A stretch of 64,000 nucleotides of DNA, from assembly GCA_964453605.1 (NCBI GenBank), contig CAYVOI010000001.1, positions 241,627 through 305,626 on the forward strand. The letters are read 5' to 3'. This DNA is from an uncultured Gammaproteobacteria bacterium (GTDB taxonomy: Bacteria > Patescibacteriota > Patescibacteriia > Veblenbacterales > UBA10138). Below, piece by piece: positions 2,991-39,731 of this stretch (position 1 is the first letter of the stretch; every line of letters starts with the position of its first letter). Position numbers and translations under genes: made by a program. The notes under the pieces are model-generated. The model had not been told where the DNA came from. It made no database searches and saw nothing but the letters and a program-made list of their open reading frames with translations.

Positions 2991-3449
2991 ATGACCCGCG
3001 ACCCCAACTCAAAAGAAGACACTCAAGTAGTGTTCTTCAAAAACAATCCTATCACTCCAAAGAAGAGCCAGTTCCTCCAAAGGATCGGATGGTTCTGGTA
3101 TTTGATTTCGGTTGTTGTTTTACTTCGACTCCTTCAAGTCACGGAGAACTTTTGGCTCACTCTTGCCGCCAGCATAGCGGTGGTGTTTGCGTTTCGATGG
3201 CGAAAAATCGTAGAGGAGATAGACGAGGACATAAAACGTCACGGAACCAGAAACGCACTGACCACGGTTATCAACATACTTTTCATAAAAATTGTTATTT
3301 ACGCAATCGGTCTCTCCTTCCTTTTCACGCTTGCTATGCCACTTGCCTGCAACATTCAAGACTCAATGGGTATCAAGTTCTTCTCGAATAGATTTTGCGA
3401 GAACAGCTTTACTAACCTTAAATATCAACTTTATGAAAACAGATATTAA
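2991..3449 (+). CDS. Hypothetical membrane protein
   Basis: 152-aa ORF with hydrophobic segments; overlaps the recombinase start by a few codons. Confidence 0.3.
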   Translation: MTRDPNSKEDTQVVFFKNNPITPKKSQFLQRIGWFWYLISVVVLLRLLQVTENFWLTLAASIAVVFAFRWRKIVEEIDEDIKRHGTRNALTTVINILFIKIVIYAIGLSFLFTLAMPLACNIQDSMGIKFFSNRFCENSFTNLKYQLYENRY

Positions 3450-5121
3450 AAACAACAAAATCAATTACATCTCCTACACCCGCAAAAGTACAGAGGGCGA
3501 GGATAGACAAACACTCTCGCTCGAAGACCAGAAGCGAGAGCTTGATGAGCTAATTAGCAAAGAGGGTCTGAAGGTCTCTGAAAGTTTTACTGGGAAAGTG
3601 AAAGGTGAAAGCCAGTCCGCACACAAGAGAGGGCGACCGATTTTCAATCACATAATGCAACAGATTGAGAGAGGAAAAGCGAACGGTCTGATTGTGTACC
3701 ACCCAAACCGTATTGCCCGTAATGCTTTCGATGGCGGTCTTGTCATCACGTTGATGGACGAAGGTAAGTTGCTCGAAATTAAAACTCCCACCAAAACATA
3801 CGTGAACAACCCAGACGACAAGTTTTGGTTACAGTTGGAGTTCGGTATGGCAAAGAAGTCATCTGATGATAACGGTGTCGCAGTGACCAGAGGCATTAAG
3901 ACAAAATTGATGGCTGGATGGTATCCTTCACGCGCTCCACTTGGTTACCTCAACACAAAGAATTACGAAGAGAAGGGTAAGAACTTCATTCTCAAAGATA
4001 CAGAGCGCTACGATTCGGTTCGTCGAATGTGGGACTTGATGCTTACGGGAAACTATACTCCTCCGCAGATTGTTCAAATTGCTAACAACGAGTGGAAGTT
4101 CAAAACACGTCCTACCAAACGTCACCCAGGACTCAAGCCACTTTCGCGCAGCAACATCTACAAAATCTTTACCAATCCGTTCTACTACGGTTACTTTGAA
4201 TACGGCAAGGAAGGTTCAAAGCAGTTATACAAAGGCAGTCACGAGCCTATGATTACAGAAAAGGAGTACGACATCGTACAGAAGTTACTCGGACGACTGG
4301 GCAGACCACGCGCCCAAAAACATCGCTTTGCTTTCACAGGATTGATGAGATGCGGTAACTGCGGCGCAATGATTACCGCCGAGGAAAAGGTAAAACATCA
4401 GAAGAATGGCAACATCCATCACTACGTGTATTATCGCTGCACAAAACAGAAGGATGAAAAATGCCCAGAGAAGGCAATCGAGTTGAAAGAATTGAGTTCG
4501 CAGATTGATGAAGCTATTGGAAAGTTCACTATATCCGAGCGCTTTAAGAATTGGGCAATCAAAGACTTGCACCAGATACGCCAAACTGAAGCCCAAACAC
4601 ACGAAGCTGCTCTCAAGAGCACTGAACGCGACCACTTGCGCATTACGCAGCAGTTACACAATCTTTTGCTCAAGCATTCTTCACCAGAGAATAGCGAAGG
4701 ACAGTTGATGTCGGATGCAGAATATCAGGATGTGCGCACGAGCTTGCTAAAGCAGAAATCTGCGCTTGAGTCACGAATCACTACTCAAAACAAGGAAATT
4801 GACGAGTGGGTTGCATTAAGCGAACGCACCTTCAATTTTGCCCGCTACGCACGAACTTGGTTTGCCCAGGGCGATATGAACACCAAGAGAGCGATATTCG
4901 CCTGCATAGGTTCGCACCTCATAGTCAAAGACCGAAAAATAGCAGTTACCCTTCGTCCAGTGTTCCAAACAATCTTTGAAGCATTGCCAAAAACACAACC
5001 TGCAATTTCCGAGATTAGAACCTCTCTTGAACTTGCACTTTCAGCTTCAAATAACGAAAAAGACGCCCTTTCGGGGCAGTCTATTTCTACTTGGCGGAGA
5101 GGATGGGATTCGAACCCATGA
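3433..5121 (+). CDS. Large serine recombinase (resolvase/integrase family)
   Basis: MKTDIKNNKINYISYTRKSTEGEDRQTLSLEDQKRELDEL... shows an N-terminal serine-recombinase catalytic domain (Y-x-R-x-S-T, IVYHPNRIARN). A recombinase domain follows, then Cys clusters (CGNCGAM...YYRC) and a coiled-coil C-terminus. Its 3' end overlaps the 3' end of tRNA-Ser(GCT). Confidence 0.85.
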   Translation: MKTDIKNNKINYISYTRKSTEGEDRQTLSLEDQKRELDELISKEGLKVSESFTGKVKGESQSAHKRGRPIFNHIMQQIERGKANGLIVYHPNRIARNAFDGGLVITLMDEGKLLEIKTPTKTYVNNPDDKFWLQLEFGMAKKSSDDNGVAVTRGIKTKLMAGWYPSRAPLGYLNTKNYEEKGKNFILKDTERYDSVRRMWDLMLTGNYTPPQIVQIANNEWKFKTRPTKRHPGLKPLSRSNIYKIFTNPFYYGYFEYGKEGSKQLYKGSHEPMITEKEYDIVQKLLGRLGRPRAQKHRFAFTGLMRCGNCGAMITAEEKVKHQKNGNIHHYVYYRCTKQKDEKCPEKAIELKELSSQIDEAIGKFTISERFKNWAIKDLHQIRQTEAQTHEAALKSTERDHLRITQQLHNLLLKHSSPENSEGQLMSDAEYQDVRTSLLKQKSALESRITTQNKEIDEWVALSERTFNFARYARTWFAQGDMNTKRAIFACIGSHLIVKDRKIAVTLRPVFQTIFEALPKTQPAISEIRTSLELALSASNNEKDALSGQSISTWRRGWDSNP

Positions 5122-5183
5122 GGCGCTGTTTAGGCGCCACGGTTTAGCAAACCGTTGCCTTAAGCCACTCGGCCACCTCTCCC
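5092..5183 (-). tRNA. tRNA-Ser (anticodon GCT)
   Basis: Minus-strand sequence GGAGAGGTGGCCGAGTGGCTTAAGGCAACGGTTTGCTAAACCGTGGCGCCTAAACAGCGCCTCATGGGTTCGAATCCCATCCTCTCCGCCA. Perfect 7-bp acceptor stem, long variable arm, GTTCGAATC T-loop, encoded CCA. Confidence 0.85.
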
Positions 5184-5189
5184 TATGCT

Positions 5190-5582
5190 TTAAAGATTTT
5201 CTGACAGAAATTTTTTCAGAGCTCCCAGATCTTTTTTCTCTGGGTCGTAATAGTACGATGTGATACCAAGTAATTGAGCACTTTTTACCGCATTTGGGTT
5301 ATGTTCAAAGTAGATGACTTCGTCTTTGTTTAAATCATACCGCTGTAACAATATTTCAAAGTATTTAGGGTCAGTTTTTTCCGGGTCGTGTTTTAAGGTG
5401 AACACCTCGTAGGGCATTTTATCCAGGCCGAATTTCTTGAATTCTTCATCATTTGCACCTGTCAAAATTATTTTTTTGTTCGGAAGAGTTTCGAGTAAAC
5501 TATGCATTGCTTCAAATATTTCAAAACCTTCATTTACCCTAACTACGAATCCGTCAATGGCATCAACTAAAATAGTTTTCAT
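5190..5582 (-). CDS. Short HAD-like hydrolase-domain protein
   Basis: 130 aa; MKTILVDAIDGFVV resembles HAD motif I. AT-rich, wedged between two tRNA-Ser genes. Confidence 0.4.
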   Translation of the reverse strand: MKTILVDAIDGFVVRVNEGFEIFEAMHSLLETLPNKKIILTGANDEEFKKFGLDKMPYEVFTLKHDPEKTDPKYFEILLQRYDLNKDEVIYFEHNPNAVKSAQLLGITSYYYDPEKKDLGALKKFLSENL

Positions 5583-5608
5583 ATAGTTACCTTATAGGCG
5601 GGGGCTAG

Positions 5609-5700
5609 TGGCGGAGGGCACAGGATTCGAACCTGTGTGAGGCTCTCGCCCCAACTGGTTTTCAAGACCAGCGCCTTAAGCCACTCAGCGACCTCTCCAC
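5609..5700 (-). tRNA. tRNA-Ser-like (anticodon TGA) with a mismatched acceptor stem; possible pseudo-tRNA
   Basis: Minus strand GGAGAGGTCGCTGAGTGGCTTAAGGCGCTGGTCTTGAAAACCAGTTGGGGCGAGAGCCTCACACAGGTTCGAATCCTGTGCCCTCCGCCA. The D-arm is nearly identical to tRNA-Ser(GCT), but the acceptor 5' GGAGAGG versus 3' GCCCTCC gives two mismatches. Confidence 0.55.
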
Positions 5701-5701
5701 G

Positions 5702-6016
5702 TTAATTCAATTTACTGTACAGCTTTTTAAATTTGTCTTTTTTATAGCATACCAGGAACCTGTCTTTGTACCTGAGCCCCTGCGCCGTAGCGCCGAGGCA
5801 GAACCCTAGCACTATGGGGTTGTAGATATGACTCAGTACAAGTGTAACACCGAGTGCTAGTGCCCATATCCAGTGGTGCAGGTGAATGTAGTATGCGCCG
5901 AAGCTTAGGCGTAGCGATTGGTGTATGTTGTCTCCCGCGACTTTGCCAGCCGTGAGGCTGAACAACAGGTAGGTAGCAAGCGCGGCGAGCGCAATAGGTA
6001 GGGCAGAGTGCAGCAT
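5702..6016 (-). CDS. Small hydrophobic membrane protein
   Basis: 104 aa with 3 predicted TM-like hydrophobic stretches. Alternative ORF 5742..6059 is arginine-rich and less plausible. Confidence 0.4.
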   Translation of the reverse strand: MLHSALPIALAALATYLLFSLTAGKVAGDNIHQSLRLSFGAYYIHLHHWIWALALGVTLVLSHIYNPIVLGFCLGATAQGLRYKDRFLVCYKKDKFKKLYSKLN

Positions 6017-6043
6017 GGGGTTTATGGTGGCGGAGGGGGGTGG

Positions 6044-6073
6044 CCCTGAAGTAGAGCATAGCTCACTTCAGGG
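6044..6073 (+). repeat. Conserved hairpin repeat CCCTGAAGT-N12-ACTTCAGGG, copy 1
   Basis: Perfect 9-bp inverted repeat. The same stem recurs at 12085..12114 and, with one mismatch, at 43816..43847. Confidence 0.5.
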
Positions 6074-6126
6074 TAAAATTCGAACCTTACTGCGGTGTAA
6101 TAGTTTTTCGCGACCCCGTACGAGAG

Positions 6127-6213
6127 CGGTGGGGGCGAGATTCGAACTCGCGGTCCGTTTGAGCGGACTCCGGTTTTCAAGACCGGTGCACTAAACCACT
6201 ATGCGACCCCACC
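6127..6213 (-). tRNA. tRNA-Ser (anticodon TGA), class II
   Basis: Minus strand GGTGGGGTCGCATAGTGGTTTAGTGCACCGGTCTTGAAAACCGGAGTCCGCTCAAACGGACCGCGAGTTCGAATCTCGCCCCCACCG. Perfect acceptor stem, 3-bp D-stem, long variable arm, G73 discriminator. Confidence 0.7.
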
Positions 6214-6396
6214 GCTCTTCTACGGGGCAAGCTGTCCGATTAAACCACTCTCGCACCCCTCCCTAGCCAAAAAATTGCTACCCCAGTATAGCCACCAAGG
6301 TCAGGAGTGTCAACGTTACCACTTAGGCATTTATTGACGGTAAACAGAAGATGCTTTACCCTTCATACTACAAAGCCAATACAAAAGGAGTCCGCC

Positions 6397-19475: not shown

Positions 19476-19525
19476 GCCCAAATATTGCTACAGTGCCAGA
19501 GCTCAATACCCGTATTGAGCACTCT

Positions 19526-19653
19526 GGTCGGGGTGTGGTGTACCCCGAAGAATCCGCCAGTCGGCGGATTTACGGGGCAGGCATGCACCCGAGGGGGCGA
19601 GAGCGAGCTGGCGTAGCTCTCGCGGGCAGTTACATTGAAAAAGTATCCATGGT
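19526..19653 (+). pseudogene. Degenerate 5' fragment of tRNA-Pro with hairpin insertions
   Basis: Starts with the same 19 nt as the tRNA-Pro 5' end (GGTCGGGGTGTGGTGTACC). Retains ATGCACCC but has a nested hairpin inserted in the D-loop and no T-arm or acceptor 3' half. Confidence 0.4.
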
Positions 19654-19728
19654 CGGGGTGTGGTGTACCGGTAACATGCACCCTTGGGGTGGGTGTGACA
19701 GCGGGTTCGACTCCCGCCACCCCGACCA
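19654..19728 (+). tRNA. tRNA-Pro (anticodon GGG)
   Basis: CGGGGTGTGGTGTACCGGTAACATGCACCCTTGGGGTGGGTGTGACAGCGGGTTCGACTCCCGCCACCCCGACCA. 7-bp acceptor, CACCC/GGGTG anticodon stem with loop TTGGGGT, TTCGACT T-loop, encoded CCA. Confidence 0.8.
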
Positions 19729-19762
19729 TGGATATTTGGAAGACAGCGGGCATTGCCCAGGA

Positions 19763-19800
19763 GGGTGTGACGGTGGGTTCGACTCCCACTACCCCGACTA
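19763..19800 (+). repeat. Partial direct repeat of the tRNA-Pro 3' half (att-like remnant)
   Basis: GGGTGTGACGGTGGGTTCGACTCCCACTACCCCGACTA versus the tRNA GGGTGTGACAGCGGGTTCGACTCCCGCCACCCCGACCA. A third acceptor-end-like copy, CCTCCACCCCGACCA, sits at 19942-19956. Confidence 0.5.
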
Positions 19801-20025
19801 AGCACATTCGTTTAGGAGACAGAGGGGCGTAAAGCCCTCGCGTAAAGCGACGTGGTCGCCACGCGACTTTACGTCGGGGGCCACGCCCTCTAGGAGGTTC
19901 GATTTACCCCGTAGGGATACGAAGTATCTCCTGCGGGGCTCCCTCCACCCCGACCAGAGATCATAGATATGATGAAACCCGACTCGCATCGCAAGCCGGG
20001 TTTCGTTGTTTGAAGTTAGTGCTTT

Positions 20026-20856: not shown

Positions 20857-21009
20857 TATGCCCGGTATGACAACTTTAGCTACGCTCACCATTCTGGCCC
20901 GATTTACCGACAAAGCATTAGTTTTCTATGTCAAGGTTATTGTTTAGTGCTAACCCAAACCACTTGGCTCGCGTAAGCGTGCCAGGCTAAAGTTGCTCTA
21001 CCGGGTATG
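20857..21009. mobile_element. TATG-flanked miniature inverted-repeat element, copy G
   Basis: TATGCCCGGTATGACAACTTTAGCTACGCTC...GCTAAAGTTGCTCTACCGGGTATG. Same terminal architecture as the six copies in the r-protein operon. The terminal ATG is the M50 peptidase start. Confidence 0.6.
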
Positions 21010-27097: not shown

Positions 27098-27311
27098 TAG
27101 AGTTACAACGTTCTTGAAATCCTTCTAAAACTTCCCCTACGTGTAGCCTTAGCACTGCGACGGTGGCCCTAAAGACCACACCTACAGCTGCCAAAGCCCA
27201 CACCTACGGAGTTCCTCTCACTTCTCACCACCTTACCCCGACATTCTTGTATGACAACCGTTTACCGGAGTTTTGGAGTTGTGGGTAGGTAAACGGTTTT
27301 TGTTTAGAGCT

Positions 27312-27457
27312 TATGCCCAGCATGACAACTTCGCTAGTGCTCGATTCAACCACCATGTATAACAACCTTATGTTTCGTATAAAGTCTTTATTCACTAACC
27401 ATTCGCTTACTTCTCCTCGCACTGAGGTGGTTGAGCGAAGTTGCTCTGCTGGGTATG
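27312..27457. mobile_element. TATG-flanked miniature inverted-repeat element, copy A
   Basis: TATGCCCAGCATGACAACTTCGCTAGTGCTCG...GAGCGAAGTTGCTCTGCTGGGTATG. Terminal inverted repeat CCCAGCA/TGCTGGG, flanking direct TATG. Its 3' ATG is the rplC start. A terminator lies just upstream at about 27258-27308. Confidence 0.6.
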
Positions 27458-29051: not shown

Positions 29052-29197
29052 TATGCCCAGCATGACAACTTCGCTAGCGCTCCTACCAACCACTATGTGC
29101 CAGAACCTTATGCTTCGTACACAGACCTTATTCACTAACCACCAACTTACTCCCACTCGCGCTTGGGTGGTTGAGCGAAGTTGCTCTGCCGGGTATG
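29052..29197. mobile_element. TATG-flanked miniature inverted-repeat element, copy B
   Basis: 146 nt, TATGCCCAGCATGACAACTTCGCTAGCGCTCC...GAGCGAAGTTGCTCTGCCGGGTATG. Identical to copy E over its full length. Its 3' ATG is the rplB start. Confidence 0.65.
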
Positions 29198-32114: not shown

Positions 32115-32261
32115 TATGCCCAGCATGACAACTTTGCTAGAGCTCGCGGCCACGGCTAACACTACCACCCCTATGTACTCTACTGCTCATACAATTACCA
32201 TTAACGACTCGCAGCCAAGCTCGCTCCATTGGGGCCGAGCAAAGTTGCCAGCTCAGGTATG
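32115..32261. mobile_element. TATG-flanked miniature inverted-repeat element, copy C (more diverged)
   Basis: TATGCCCAGCATGACAACTTTGCTAGAGCTCGCGG...GAGCAAAGTTGCCAGCTCAGGTATG. Its 3' ATG is the rpsQ start. Confidence 0.55.
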
Positions 32262-34410: not shown

Positions 34411-34557
34411 TATGCCCGGCATGACAACTTCGCTGGAGCTCGCGGCCGCAGTATTCAGTAACACTACTATGTACAATACTTCTGTCATTCGTATTACCAT
34501 TAACACGCAGCCTGGCTCGCTCCCAAGCGGACGAGCGAAGTTGCTAGCCCAGGTATG
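34411..34557. mobile_element. TATG-flanked miniature inverted-repeat element, copy D
   Basis: TATGCCCGGCATGACAACTTCGCTGGAGCTCGCGG...GAGCGAAGTTGCTAGCCCAGGTATG. Its 3' ATG is the rplF start. Confidence 0.6.
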
Positions 34558-35114: not shown

Positions 35115-35260
35115 TATGCCCAGCATGACAACTTCGCTAGCGCTCCTACCAACCACTATGTGCCAGAACCTTATGCTTCGTACACAGACCTTATTCACTA
35201 ACCACCAACTTACTCCCACTCGCGCTTGGGTGGTTGAGCGAAGTTGCTCTGCCGGGTATG
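35115..35260. mobile_element. TATG-flanked miniature inverted-repeat element, copy E (identical to copy B)
   Basis: 146/146 identity with 29052..29197. Its 3' ATG is the rplR start. Confidence 0.65.
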
Positions 35261-36174: not shown

Positions 36175-36324
36175 TATGCCCGGCATGACAACTTCGCTGG
36201 AGCTCGCTTCGGCCACGGCAGGTAAAGAAATTCTTATGCTCTATAAGTTAAACTTCAGTACTACCATTAATATGCAGCTCCGCTCGCTCCCTAGTGGCCG
36301 AGCGAAGTTGCTCTGCTAGGTATG
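36175..36324. mobile_element. TATG-flanked miniature inverted-repeat element, copy F
   Basis: TATGCCCGGCATGACAACTTCGCTGGAGCTCGC...GAGCGAAGTTGCTCTGCTAGGTATG. Its 3' ATG is the rplO start. Confidence 0.6.
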
Positions 36325-38777: not shown

Positions 38778-39410
38778 ATGGTAAATCGGTTTACATTATT
38801 AGGCCCCCAGGGGTCAGGGAAGGGCACGCAGGCCAAGGTTCTAGCAGAACGCTTGGGCGTGCCGCATATTTCTACTGGTGACATGTTCCGCGATAACATC
38901 GCCCGTGGTACTTCCTTAGGCCTTAGGGCCAAGGAGCTTATTGAGCATGGTACCCTGGTGCCCGACGACCTCACCAATGCACTGGTGGAAGAGCGCCTCA
39001 AACAGCCTGATGCCCGGAACGGTTTTGTGCTGGACGGGTTCCCTCGGAACATGGCGCAAGCTGAGTTTTTGACGAAACTCCAGCCTGAGGTTCGCGCTAT
39101 TAACCTTGAGCTCTCAGATGATGAAGCGGTTAAGCGCATCGCTGGCCGCAGGACCTGTGAGCAGTGCGGGGCTATTTTTCACCTTGAGTTCAATCCGCCA
39201 AAGGTGCAGGGAGTTTGTGACAAGTGCGGCGGTAAGCTGGTGGAACGCTCAGACGATACCGAAAGCTCCGTTCGGCGTAGGCTTAAGGACTACCACACCG
39301 CTACCGAGCCGCTACTCGAGTACTACCGCAGTCACGGCGCCCTAACTTCGGTGAACGGCGCTCCCGCTATTTCTGAAGTTACTAAGCTTATCGAGCAGGC
39401 GGTGGGGTAG
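38778..39410 (+). CDS. adk: Adenylate kinase
   Basis: GPQGSGKGTQ P-loop, ISTGDMFRD, and a Zn lid (C-x2-C...C-x2-C). Confidence 0.9.
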   Translation: MVNRFTLLGPQGSGKGTQAKVLAERLGVPHISTGDMFRDNIARGTSLGLRAKELIEHGTLVPDDLTNALVEERLKQPDARNGFVLDGFPRNMAQAEFLTKLQPEVRAINLELSDDEAVKRIAGRRTCEQCGAIFHLEFNPPKVQGVCDKCGGKLVERSDDTESSVRRRLKDYHTATEPLLEYYRSHGALTSVNGAPAISEVTKLIEQAVG

Positions 39411-39415
39411 CAGCG

Positions 39416-39731
39416 TATGCCCAGTAACAAAACTTCGCATGTTCTTCTATACCTACCTACTTCAGAGCGCTAAAGACGGTAAGCACTATATCGGCTTTAC
39501 AAAAGATTTACGCGGTCGGATTGAAGAACACAATGCAGGTAAGAGTTTTGCAACGAGACCTCGGGTGCCATTAGTCCTTGTTTACTATGAAGCGTGTCGA
39601 AGTGAACAAGATGCCAAACAGCGGGAGAAGTACCTCAAAACTACAGCCGGCCGTAGGTTCCTGGCCAAGCGTCTTCGACGTTTTCGATTGCTGAGTTTGG
39701 CATCTTGGTGAAGTTATTGTTACTGGGTATG
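39416..39731. mobile_element. 316-bp TATG-flanked inverted-repeat element carrying a GIY-YIG nuclease gene
   Basis: TATG-CCCAGTAACAAAACTTCGC...GGTGAAGTTATTGTTACTGGG-TATG. The 11-bp perfect TIR CCCAGTAACAA/TTGTTACTGGG and subterminal AACTTCGC/GAAGTT blocks are homologous to the ends of the 146-bp elements. The terminal ATG is the map start. Confidence 0.55.
39439..39711 (+). CDS. GIY-YIG nuclease family protein (YhbQ/UPF0213-like)
   Basis: MFFYTYLLQSAKDGKHYIGFTKDLRGRIEEHNAGKSFATRPRVPLVLVYYEA..REKYLK shows the YxY...YIG...R..EH.N core of the GIY-YIG fold. 90 aa. Confidence 0.8.
   Translation: MFFYTYLLQSAKDGKHYIGFTKDLRGRIEEHNAGKSFATRPRVPLVLVYYEACRSEQDAKQREKYLKTTAGRRFLAKRLRRFRLLSLASW

Follow-up and report, generated by a model that had tools for sequence, protein, structure and literature searches.

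A probable ultra-compact mobile family built from CCCNGT inverted repeats and a small GIY-YIG nuclease gene, represented by a 308-bp unit between adk and map

The DNA analysed here (the window) is a stretch of 64,000 nucleotides from contig CAYVOI010000001.1, which belongs to an uncultured bacterium placed among the Patescibacteriota (Patescibacteria, or Candidate Phyla Radiation, CPR). The subject of the analysis is a unit of 308 bp that carries the gene of a small GIY-YIG nuclease and lies between adk and map, together with the short non-coding units that have similar ends.

The GIY-YIG unit and seven small units in the window

The neighbouring genes were identified by Pfam as encoding adenylate kinase (adk, ending at 39410) and methionine aminopeptidase (map, Peptidase_M24, E 1e-52). 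The unit between them (39420-39727) is located between two copies of TATG and is bounded by the terminal inverted repeats CCCAGTAACAA...TTGTTACTGGG; all of its features are on the + strand. An earlier reading made from the letters alone (the sequence-only reading) had delimited a 316-bp stretch from TATG to TATG at this place, and its coordinates (39416-39731) proved exact. The left TATG (39416-39419) corresponds to the single TATG at the empty sites of relatives, and its ATG is the start codon that map had before the insertion; this old ATG now starts an out-of-frame open reading frame (ORF) of 18 codons. The left terminal inverted repeat (CCCAGTAACAAAACTTCGC, 39420-39438), whose first 12 bases are constant in five units with diverged ORFs, is followed by the sole gene of the unit, an intact ORF for a GIY-YIG nuclease of 90 amino acids (aa) that is UPF0213/YhbQ-SLX1-like and keeps every family-invariant residue (39439-39711). 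The right terminal inverted repeat (GGTGAAGTTATTGTTACTGGG, 39707-39727) overlaps the stop codon of the nuclease gene, so that the ORF fills about 89% of the unit, with its start and stop in or against the repeats. The right TATG comes next (39728-39731), and its ATG at 39729 opens map, confirming that the last ATG of the stretch is the working start codon. The inverted repeat is perfect over 11 bp and reaches about 20 bp if one indel is allowed; as previously claimed, the perfect 11-bp repeat is present at both ends of the unit, and it occurs nowhere else in the window. When the region was folded, the two ends of the unit paired with each other. The source assembly calls map from an upstream TTG and leaves the nuclease gene uncalled.

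The protein matched the Pfam GIY-YIG family (PF01541) at residues 3-72 with 58.3 bits (cut-off 22.6) and an E value of 9.4e-16. Nineteen residues were invariant in 26 diverged members, all of which are found in the window copy, including Y6, Y17, G19, R27, H31, and E63; we take these invariant residues to correspond to the catalytic residues of I-TevI. Modelling predicted the GIY-YIG alpha/beta fold, with SLX1 as the closest match to the predicted fold. The nearest solved sequences were those of the UPF0213 proteins BH0048 and EF2693, followed by an SLX1 homologue, and by sequence similarity the protein is assigned to the bacterial UPF0213 branch. It differs from SLX1 proper, which has a C-terminal zinc-finger domain and needs SLX4, in that its 90 aa comprise the nuclease domain alone. 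The score against TIGR01453 was 18 bits, with a cut-off of 56. The protein does not conform to a GIY-YIG homing endonuclease either, given its 90 aa, the lack of a match to an Rfam intron family, the many sites occupied, and the terminal repeats. None of the known transposase classes (DDE, HUH, serine, or tyrosine) is encoded by the unit, its only ORF being the GIY-YIG gene. No family was assigned by NCBIfam, PHROG, or PADLOC, and these searches returned no protein families of defence systems or phages. SLX1, a structure-specific nuclease, has been described as founding a family to which YhbQ and YazA belong (PMC7017083).

Seven small units with the same end design, all on the + strand, are located elsewhere in the window. 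The first precedes an M50 peptidase gene in the divergent intergenic region downstream of rpmB, which is on the - strand (20861-21005, with TATG at 20857-20860 and 21006-21009). The second precedes rplC (27316-27453, with TATG at 27312-27315 and 27454-27457), and the others are found between rplW and rplB (29056-29193), rpmC and rpsQ (32119-32257), rpsH and rplF (34415-34553), rplF and rplR (35119-35256), and rpsE and rplO (36179-36320). Each of the seven has a TATG on either side, and the downstream gene begins at the second ATG (M50 peptidase, rplC, rplB, rpsQ, rplF, rplR, and rplO, respectively). They are non-coding, measure 138-145 bp between the TATGs (142-149 bp from ATG to ATG), and follow the design TATG/CCCRG-YATGAC-AACTTYRC...GCRAAGTT-N6-CNRGG/TATG. 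The left-end pattern ATGCCCRGNNNNNNAACTT (layout ATG/CCCRG-N6-AACTT) was matched 8 times, against 0.00 expected from 100 shuffles, and the matches were exactly the seven small units and the GIY-YIG unit. The block AACTTYGC on the + strand is confined to seven of these eight units; the copy at 20857 has AACTTTAG instead. The left arm of the GIY-YIG unit is identical to that of the small units at 15 of 19 positions, and its right arm contains their blocks, but spaced by one extra base. The sequence-only reading had matched these end blocks and proposed comparing the arms of full and miniature copies, and the match was upheld by the comparison; the doubt it had raised, that the similarity might be no better than to random sequence, does not hold against the count of matches. 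By their features (short, non-coding, multicopy, with terminal repeats, a target duplication, and termini common to a protein-coding partner), the small units are MITEs (miniature transposable elements with inverted repeats).

The units at 29056-29193 and 35119-35256 are 100% identical; the identity runs exactly from TATG (29052 and 35115) to TATG, and the flanks are unrelated. This sequence identity points to recent copying, and the two copies provide only an indirect sign of transposition. The sequence ATGACAAC occurs outside the seven small units only once, at 27251 in the spacer between rpsJ and rplC (27098-27311, 214 nt, non-coding, with a stem-loop and then a T run), where it is probably the relic of another copy. 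An Rfam scan of the window found tRNAs and no other RNA family. A public assembly of the same genome (L222, a Logan contig) breaks at the small unit upstream of rplO, and exact protein look-ups for strain polymorphism retrieved no record for RplF and, for SecY, only the same genome with the contig broken at the small element.

The terminal repeats pair as a hairpin, with covariation at 6 of 18 pairs, and in the small units the pairing reaches inward through stems that are lineage-specific yet complementary. In the six copies of the ribosomal-protein operon, a frame of 47-51 codons starts at the old ATG, is free of stops across the unit (the copy at 36175 has a terminal TAG only), and ends -5 to +10 nt from the new ATG, whereas the other two forward frames contain 2-4 stops each. 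The copy at 20857, located in a divergent intergenic region with no coupled upstream gene, has 2 stops in the ATG frame. The open frame may reflect local selection that keeps the downstream gene translationally coupled. A translation relay as a general property of the units was rejected: the six operon copies show it, loci L005 and L159 do so for the most part, and it fails in L023, L038, L070, and L097.

Empty sites and target duplications

Five relatives whose Map proteins are 71-80% identical to that of the window (L095, L096, L097, L220, and L221, Candidatus Veblenbacteria assembly) were obtained from a Map protein search, which also returned the window's own genome (100% identity, on a contig of 876,493 bp). 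All five have map directly next to adk or overlapping it, with one TATG at the junction, and the gene order downstream (ruvX, glycosyltransferase) is preserved. A conserved syntenic yhbQ between adk and map, which the sequence-only reading had named as the case against it, is therefore not what these genomes contain, and homologues of the nuclease gene are found in unrelated contexts with the same repeats. The ribosomal-protein operon was compared in L220 and L221, the only relatives whose fetched loci span it. No inserts were present at the five sites checked (rplW-rplB, rpmC-rpsQ, rpsH-rplF, rplF-rplR, and rpsE-rplO), the gene junctions consisting of just a few bases, and the codons after the single TATG equal those of the window where they can be aligned. 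The rplB gene of L221, for example, reads TATG ccagttaaactcta, and the same letters follow the unit in the window. The reverse case is the map-ruvX overlap, which is empty in the window but occupied in L097 by a small unit of the window family (CCCGGTATGACAACTTCAC...GCGAAGTTGCTCTACCGGG). Based on the empty sites, the filled site of L097 at a position empty in the window, and the identical copies, the 308-bp unit is an insertion. Presence and absence at orthologous sites, together with occurrence in unrelated contexts, are what is expected of a DNA transposon in general, and the earlier claim that the GIY-YIG unit and the small units are one family of terminal-repeat insertions was supported.

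With the element boundary set at CCC/GGG, the flanking direct repeats are 3-6 bp long, mostly 4 bp starting with T. They vary by site (TATG, ATG, TACG, TTTA, TCAA at two sites, TTCA, TCCA, TTTG, TTG, TTT, AAA, TAG, CTTGA, and CGTAG), and TAAA flanks five small units from metagenomes. In the class with TCCCG...CGGGA ends, the repeat consists of TG plus 1-3 bases of the second codon of the downstream gene (TGAA, TGAC, and TGAAG were seen), and the last A of the element together with TG restores the ATG; an ORF of at least 129 codons starts exactly at the restored ATG in 8 of the 12 loci of this class. Since the flanking repeats change with the site and include bases of the downstream gene, they are derived from the target. 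A parallel case was observed at a tRNA gene, where a GIY-YIG unit is located at the 5' end (L034, 2476-2825) and the terminal GGG plus the repeat CTGTAG restore the 5' end of the tRNA, in the way that ATG is restored at protein genes.

We further considered whether gene starts are a special target. In the 21-42 kb part of the window, T directly precedes ATG in 27 of 29 genes, with no evident Shine-Dalgarno sequence, and nearly all TATG sites other than starts are within genes. Because TATG is the generic start context, a preference for TATG combined with selection suffices to account for all eight units being at gene starts. Related small units of A+T-rich genomes duplicate TAAA 4-7 nt upstream of ATG. 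Start-codon targeting as a mechanistic necessity was consequently discarded as unneeded, T-ATG being generic and upstream TAAA being used by other lineages. The proposal of insertion into TATG at gene starts thus stood in part: the units are of one family and land at TATG starts, but TATG is not a special target. At most junctions between 21000 and 42000, the upstream stop is 1-6 nt before the next start.

Related units in other genomes

A homologue search returned 108 proteins of 78-135 aa, whose names point to Patescibacteria. About half of them begin with MPSN(K/N)TS, the residues encoded by ATG and the terminal repeat that follows it. An exhaustive profile search yielded 4,285 clusters (50% identity) at E<=1e-10. 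For the locus sample, one genome per species was taken, giving at least 581 relatives, and the best 80 loci were subjected to a strict terminal-repeat scan. A unit of 270-350 bp bounded by CCC...GGG (CCCNGT-type) repeats was found in 52 of them, and in the majority of these it was flanked by direct repeats of 3-6 bp that varied among sites. In L001, the homologue is located between a hypothetical gene and a UPF0102-family gene with the bounds ATG/CCCAGTAACAAAGCTTCACC...GTGAAGTTATTGTTACTGGG/ATG; in L005, where the terminal repeats are the same, it lies between the gene of an ABC ATPase and that of its permease and is followed by a tandem 145-bp miniature unit. Three classes of ends were prominent: CCCRGTA..., (T)CCCGT..., and CCCCGTTAGAGAT.... 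According to record titles, the hosts are CPR groups as well as Planctomycetes, Omnitrophica, Nitrospirae, and Desulfobacterales, where some metagenome-bin labels may be unreliable. A pattern scan of metagenomes gave 120 matches, mostly due to chance, with about 10 true small elements among them. Searches of phages, plasmids, and viral contigs for carriers gave no hits.

Miniature units with termini nearly identical to those of the GIY-YIG unit of the same locus were found in several loci. The two termini agreed at 13 of 13 and 30 of 30 positions in L038, at 16 of 16 and 14 of 14 in L068, and at 19 of 21 and 21 of 23 in L031, and a cognate pair was also present in L070. The interiors of these cognate miniature units are unrelated to the nuclease gene. 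Accordingly, the miniature units are partners with common termini. The suggestion that the small units arose from the GIY-YIG element by internal deletion did not survive: only 13-30 nt per end are common even in cognate pairs of the same locus, and deletion derivatives were ruled out by global alignments that are identical at the termini only, with unrelated interiors.

Five units with proteins that diverge by 25-35% are invariant in the outer 12-14 bases of each arm, and the differences in the ORFs fall mainly on third codon positions. Protein identity was 0.644 within a terminal-repeat class versus 0.574 between classes, a difference that none of 2000 permutations reached. The termini and the nuclease gene travel and evolve together. 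The fetched DNA (1.26 Mb) contained no longer unit with such termini and no transposase. That the family is mobile can be regarded as secure.

Several assemblies from a single population (L005-L014) have N runs or unequal lengths just past the GIY-YIG unit, at the tandem miniature unit; these differences probably reflect scaffolding errors provoked by the repeat and not true polymorphism. Some GIY-YIG domains in the protein library are joined to long host proteins (P0109, P0232, and P0360), probably as read-through calls over units.

Other features of the window were noted. In the region 3433-6227, the end of a large serine recombinase (Resolvase, Recombinase, and zinc ribbon) overlaps tRNA-Ser(gct). 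Three tRNA-Ser genes are located about 515 bp apart on the - strand (5092-5182, 5609-5698, and 6126-6213), interspersed with a HAD-like ORF and a small membrane ORF, and the region looks like an integrated element at a tRNA-Ser site. At 6114-6227, a 14-bp inverted repeat (CCCCGTACGAGAGC / GCTCTTCTACGGGG) brackets tRNA-Ser(tga), with no flanking duplication seen. On the - strand this repeat starts with CCCCGTAGAAG, which is identical at 10 of 11 positions to the repeat start of the GIY-YIG unit of L048 and so resembles one class of terminal repeat; the feature may represent a related unit with a tRNA inside, or a chance likeness. At 19522-19959, tRNA-Pro (19654-19728) is followed by a duplicate of its 3' half (19760-19808) within nested inverted repeats, which may be a remnant of integration.

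A possible role of the nuclease in mobility

We consider it probable that the 308-bp unit is a copy of a widespread, ultra-compact mobile family consisting of CCCNGT inverted repeats (~13-25 bp) and one GIY-YIG gene of 80-100 aa. Non-coding miniature partners of 80-155 bp with the same termini are probably moved in trans. The sequence comparisons also make the GIY-YIG nuclease the likely driver of the mobility of the family. With more reserve, we lean towards the SLX1-like nuclease being itself the transposase. It would then represent a new class that is nuclease-only, structure-guided, and completed by host repair, and its units, at about 280-310 bp, would be the smallest autonomous mobile elements known, which in CPR are specialised for start codons and translated through in coupled operons.

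Transposition by the nuclease could proceed as follows. The nuclease would recognise the CCCNGT ends, plausibly as a hairpin or cruciform, which would fit an SLX1-like structure-specific enzyme. Staggered cuts would be made at the junctions of element and flank and at the target, and host polymerase and ligase would fill and seal the gaps, giving the duplication of 3-6 bp. Overhangs of the duplicated bases could allow precise resealing of the donor, or excision, which would suit elements inside essential operons. In CPR, the surviving insertions are located at or just inside start codons, where the duplication, in some cases with the element's last base added, restores the start.

Several points weigh against a nuclease that moves its own units. 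GIY-YIG enzymes are hydrolytic, and we know of no strand-transfer or covalent-intermediate chemistry among them; since they are without known joining chemistry, integration would need host functions. The protein has 90 aa and no separate DNA-binding domain, and the length of the duplication, anywhere from 3 to 6 bp, is more variable than is usual for one transposase family. In 28 of the 80 loci, the strict scan found no terminal repeat. The A+T-rich L023, L038, and L070 and, on our own reading, L097 lack the open mini-ORF. The repeat of the resident GIY-YIG unit differs from that of the small units at 4 of 19 positions and by the one-base spacing, and the resident unit is perhaps not the mover of the identical copies, the window covering 64 kb of a contig of about 0.88 Mb. 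Finally, all eight units of the window have one orientation, which is not predicted by symmetric cut-and-paste; the single orientation may result from selection or from the asymmetric central hexamer of the repeat.

The alternative that survives best, although we regard it as unlikely, is that the terminal-repeat units are mobile with the GIY-YIG gene as cargo or passenger, such as a nuclease of the homing type whose action would be to cut empty sites or to make the insertion stable, and that a conventional transposase encoded elsewhere (such as a DDE enzyme, which would go with CC-ended repeats and 4-5-bp duplications) moves both sizes of unit. The missing joining chemistry would be explained in this way, as would the mismatches between the repeats of the resident unit and the small units, and the window, being 7% of the genome, leaves room for such an enzyme. 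However, a passenger gene would hardly be expected to fill so much of the unit with its start and stop in or against the repeats. The association of ORF and repeat also extends over thousands of diverged clusters in several phyla, protein similarity diverges together with the terminal-repeat class, and the 1.26 Mb of fetched DNA held neither a transposase nor a longer unit.

Less probable still is that the units act at the RNA level, their hairpins serving as operon punctuation or as intervening sequences processed by a double-strand RNase (as in rRNA genes) and being spread by nuclease-promoted recombination. The hairpins are conserved with covariation, all copies in the window are co-transcribed with host genes, and the open mini-ORFs of the operon suggest selection at the transcript level; GIY-YIG ORFs are also reported from non-intron insertions in CPR rRNA genes (PMC11270868). 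On the other hand, short direct repeats specific to each site, together with clean empty sites and copies that are identical at unrelated places, typify DNA insertion, and Rfam gave no match. A role in RNA is moreover compatible with DNA mobility, making it more a complement than a rival.

An IS200/IS605-like insertion 3' of a fixed ATG or TATG, without duplication and with the right TATG borne by the element, is very improbable. TATG is present on both sides and the orientation is the same in every copy of the window, and the ends can form hairpins, but there is no HUH (tyrosine) transposase, and the element-borne ATG was ruled out by flanking repeats that vary by site and take in letters of the downstream gene. 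The reading as a housekeeping yhbQ-like gene that simply happens to lie between adk and map, next to unrelated intergenic hairpins, can be dismissed almost entirely, for although the closest solved relatives are UPF0213 proteins of free-living bacteria, the adk-map junction is empty in five relatives, homologues elsewhere have the same repeats, and the end pattern gave 8 matches against 0 expected.

The family in which the nuclease is the probable driver was further compared with known systems. With conventional insertion sequences it shares terminal inverted repeats, short duplications, dispersed copies, empty sites, and non-coding partners with the same termini. It differs in that the sole protein is a GIY-YIG nuclease of 80-100 aa, with no DDE, HUH, serine, or tyrosine transposase, and in its 3-6-bp duplications. 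The smallest insertion sequences are about 0.6-0.7 kb, compared to about 280-310 bp for the whole autonomous-looking unit here. REPIN-RAYT systems and the palindrome-associated miniatures of IS200/IS605 likewise combine one small nuclease gene with hairpin repeats that are also dispersed as short non-coding units, and the hairpin appears important; their nucleases are HUH tyrosine enzymes, however, and they have subterminal hairpins and no duplication, in contrast to the GIY-YIG nuclease, true terminal repeats, and duplications described here. The GIY-YIG homing endonucleases I-TevI and Seg of phage T4 have the same catalytic domain and are selfish genes that reside in or between host genes without destroying them. 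I-TevI comprises about 245 aa, and unlike the small nuclease, these enzymes have long DNA-binding domains and spread by recombination at the same site, without terminal repeats, duplications, or miniatures. Penelope-like retroelements form the one class of transposable elements known to depend on a GIY-YIG nuclease, and the length of their duplications is likewise variable, but they are eukaryotic and move by an RNA route with a reverse transcriptase, which the present units do not have. The nearest likeness in the same host group comes from insertions in CPR rRNA genes that are neither group I nor group II introns and hold small GIY-YIG ORFs, which the authors place outside homing (PMC11270868); that paper mentions no inverted repeats or palindromes, and it mentions transposition once, for LAGLIDADG proteins.

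No text in which GIY-YIG is named as a transposase, transposon, mobile element, or insertion sequence was found among about 8 million texts, a collection that excludes subscription-only papers. Searches of the literature on UPF0213 proteins (YhbQ/YazA) found no report tying them to mobile DNA. The element family is apparently undescribed, in line with the earlier remark that it is not a described insertion sequence family, for which no published description was found.

If the nuclease does move the units, transposition would rest on a fold that is not known to drive it unless a reverse transcriptase takes part, and on a protein of about 90 residues, which would set a new lower size bound for an autonomous mobile element. 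A part of the large, uncharacterised UPF0213/YhbQ family would gain a function. It would also account for the unannotated inserts of 140 bp and 300 bp in CPR genomes, which interrupt assemblies and shift gene starts. Such a small nuclease, with its recognition of a defined 20-bp end (possibly in the form of a structure), would be a potential tool. The window itself provides a natural case in which inserts are tolerated in an essential ribosomal-protein operon, since the start codon is restored.

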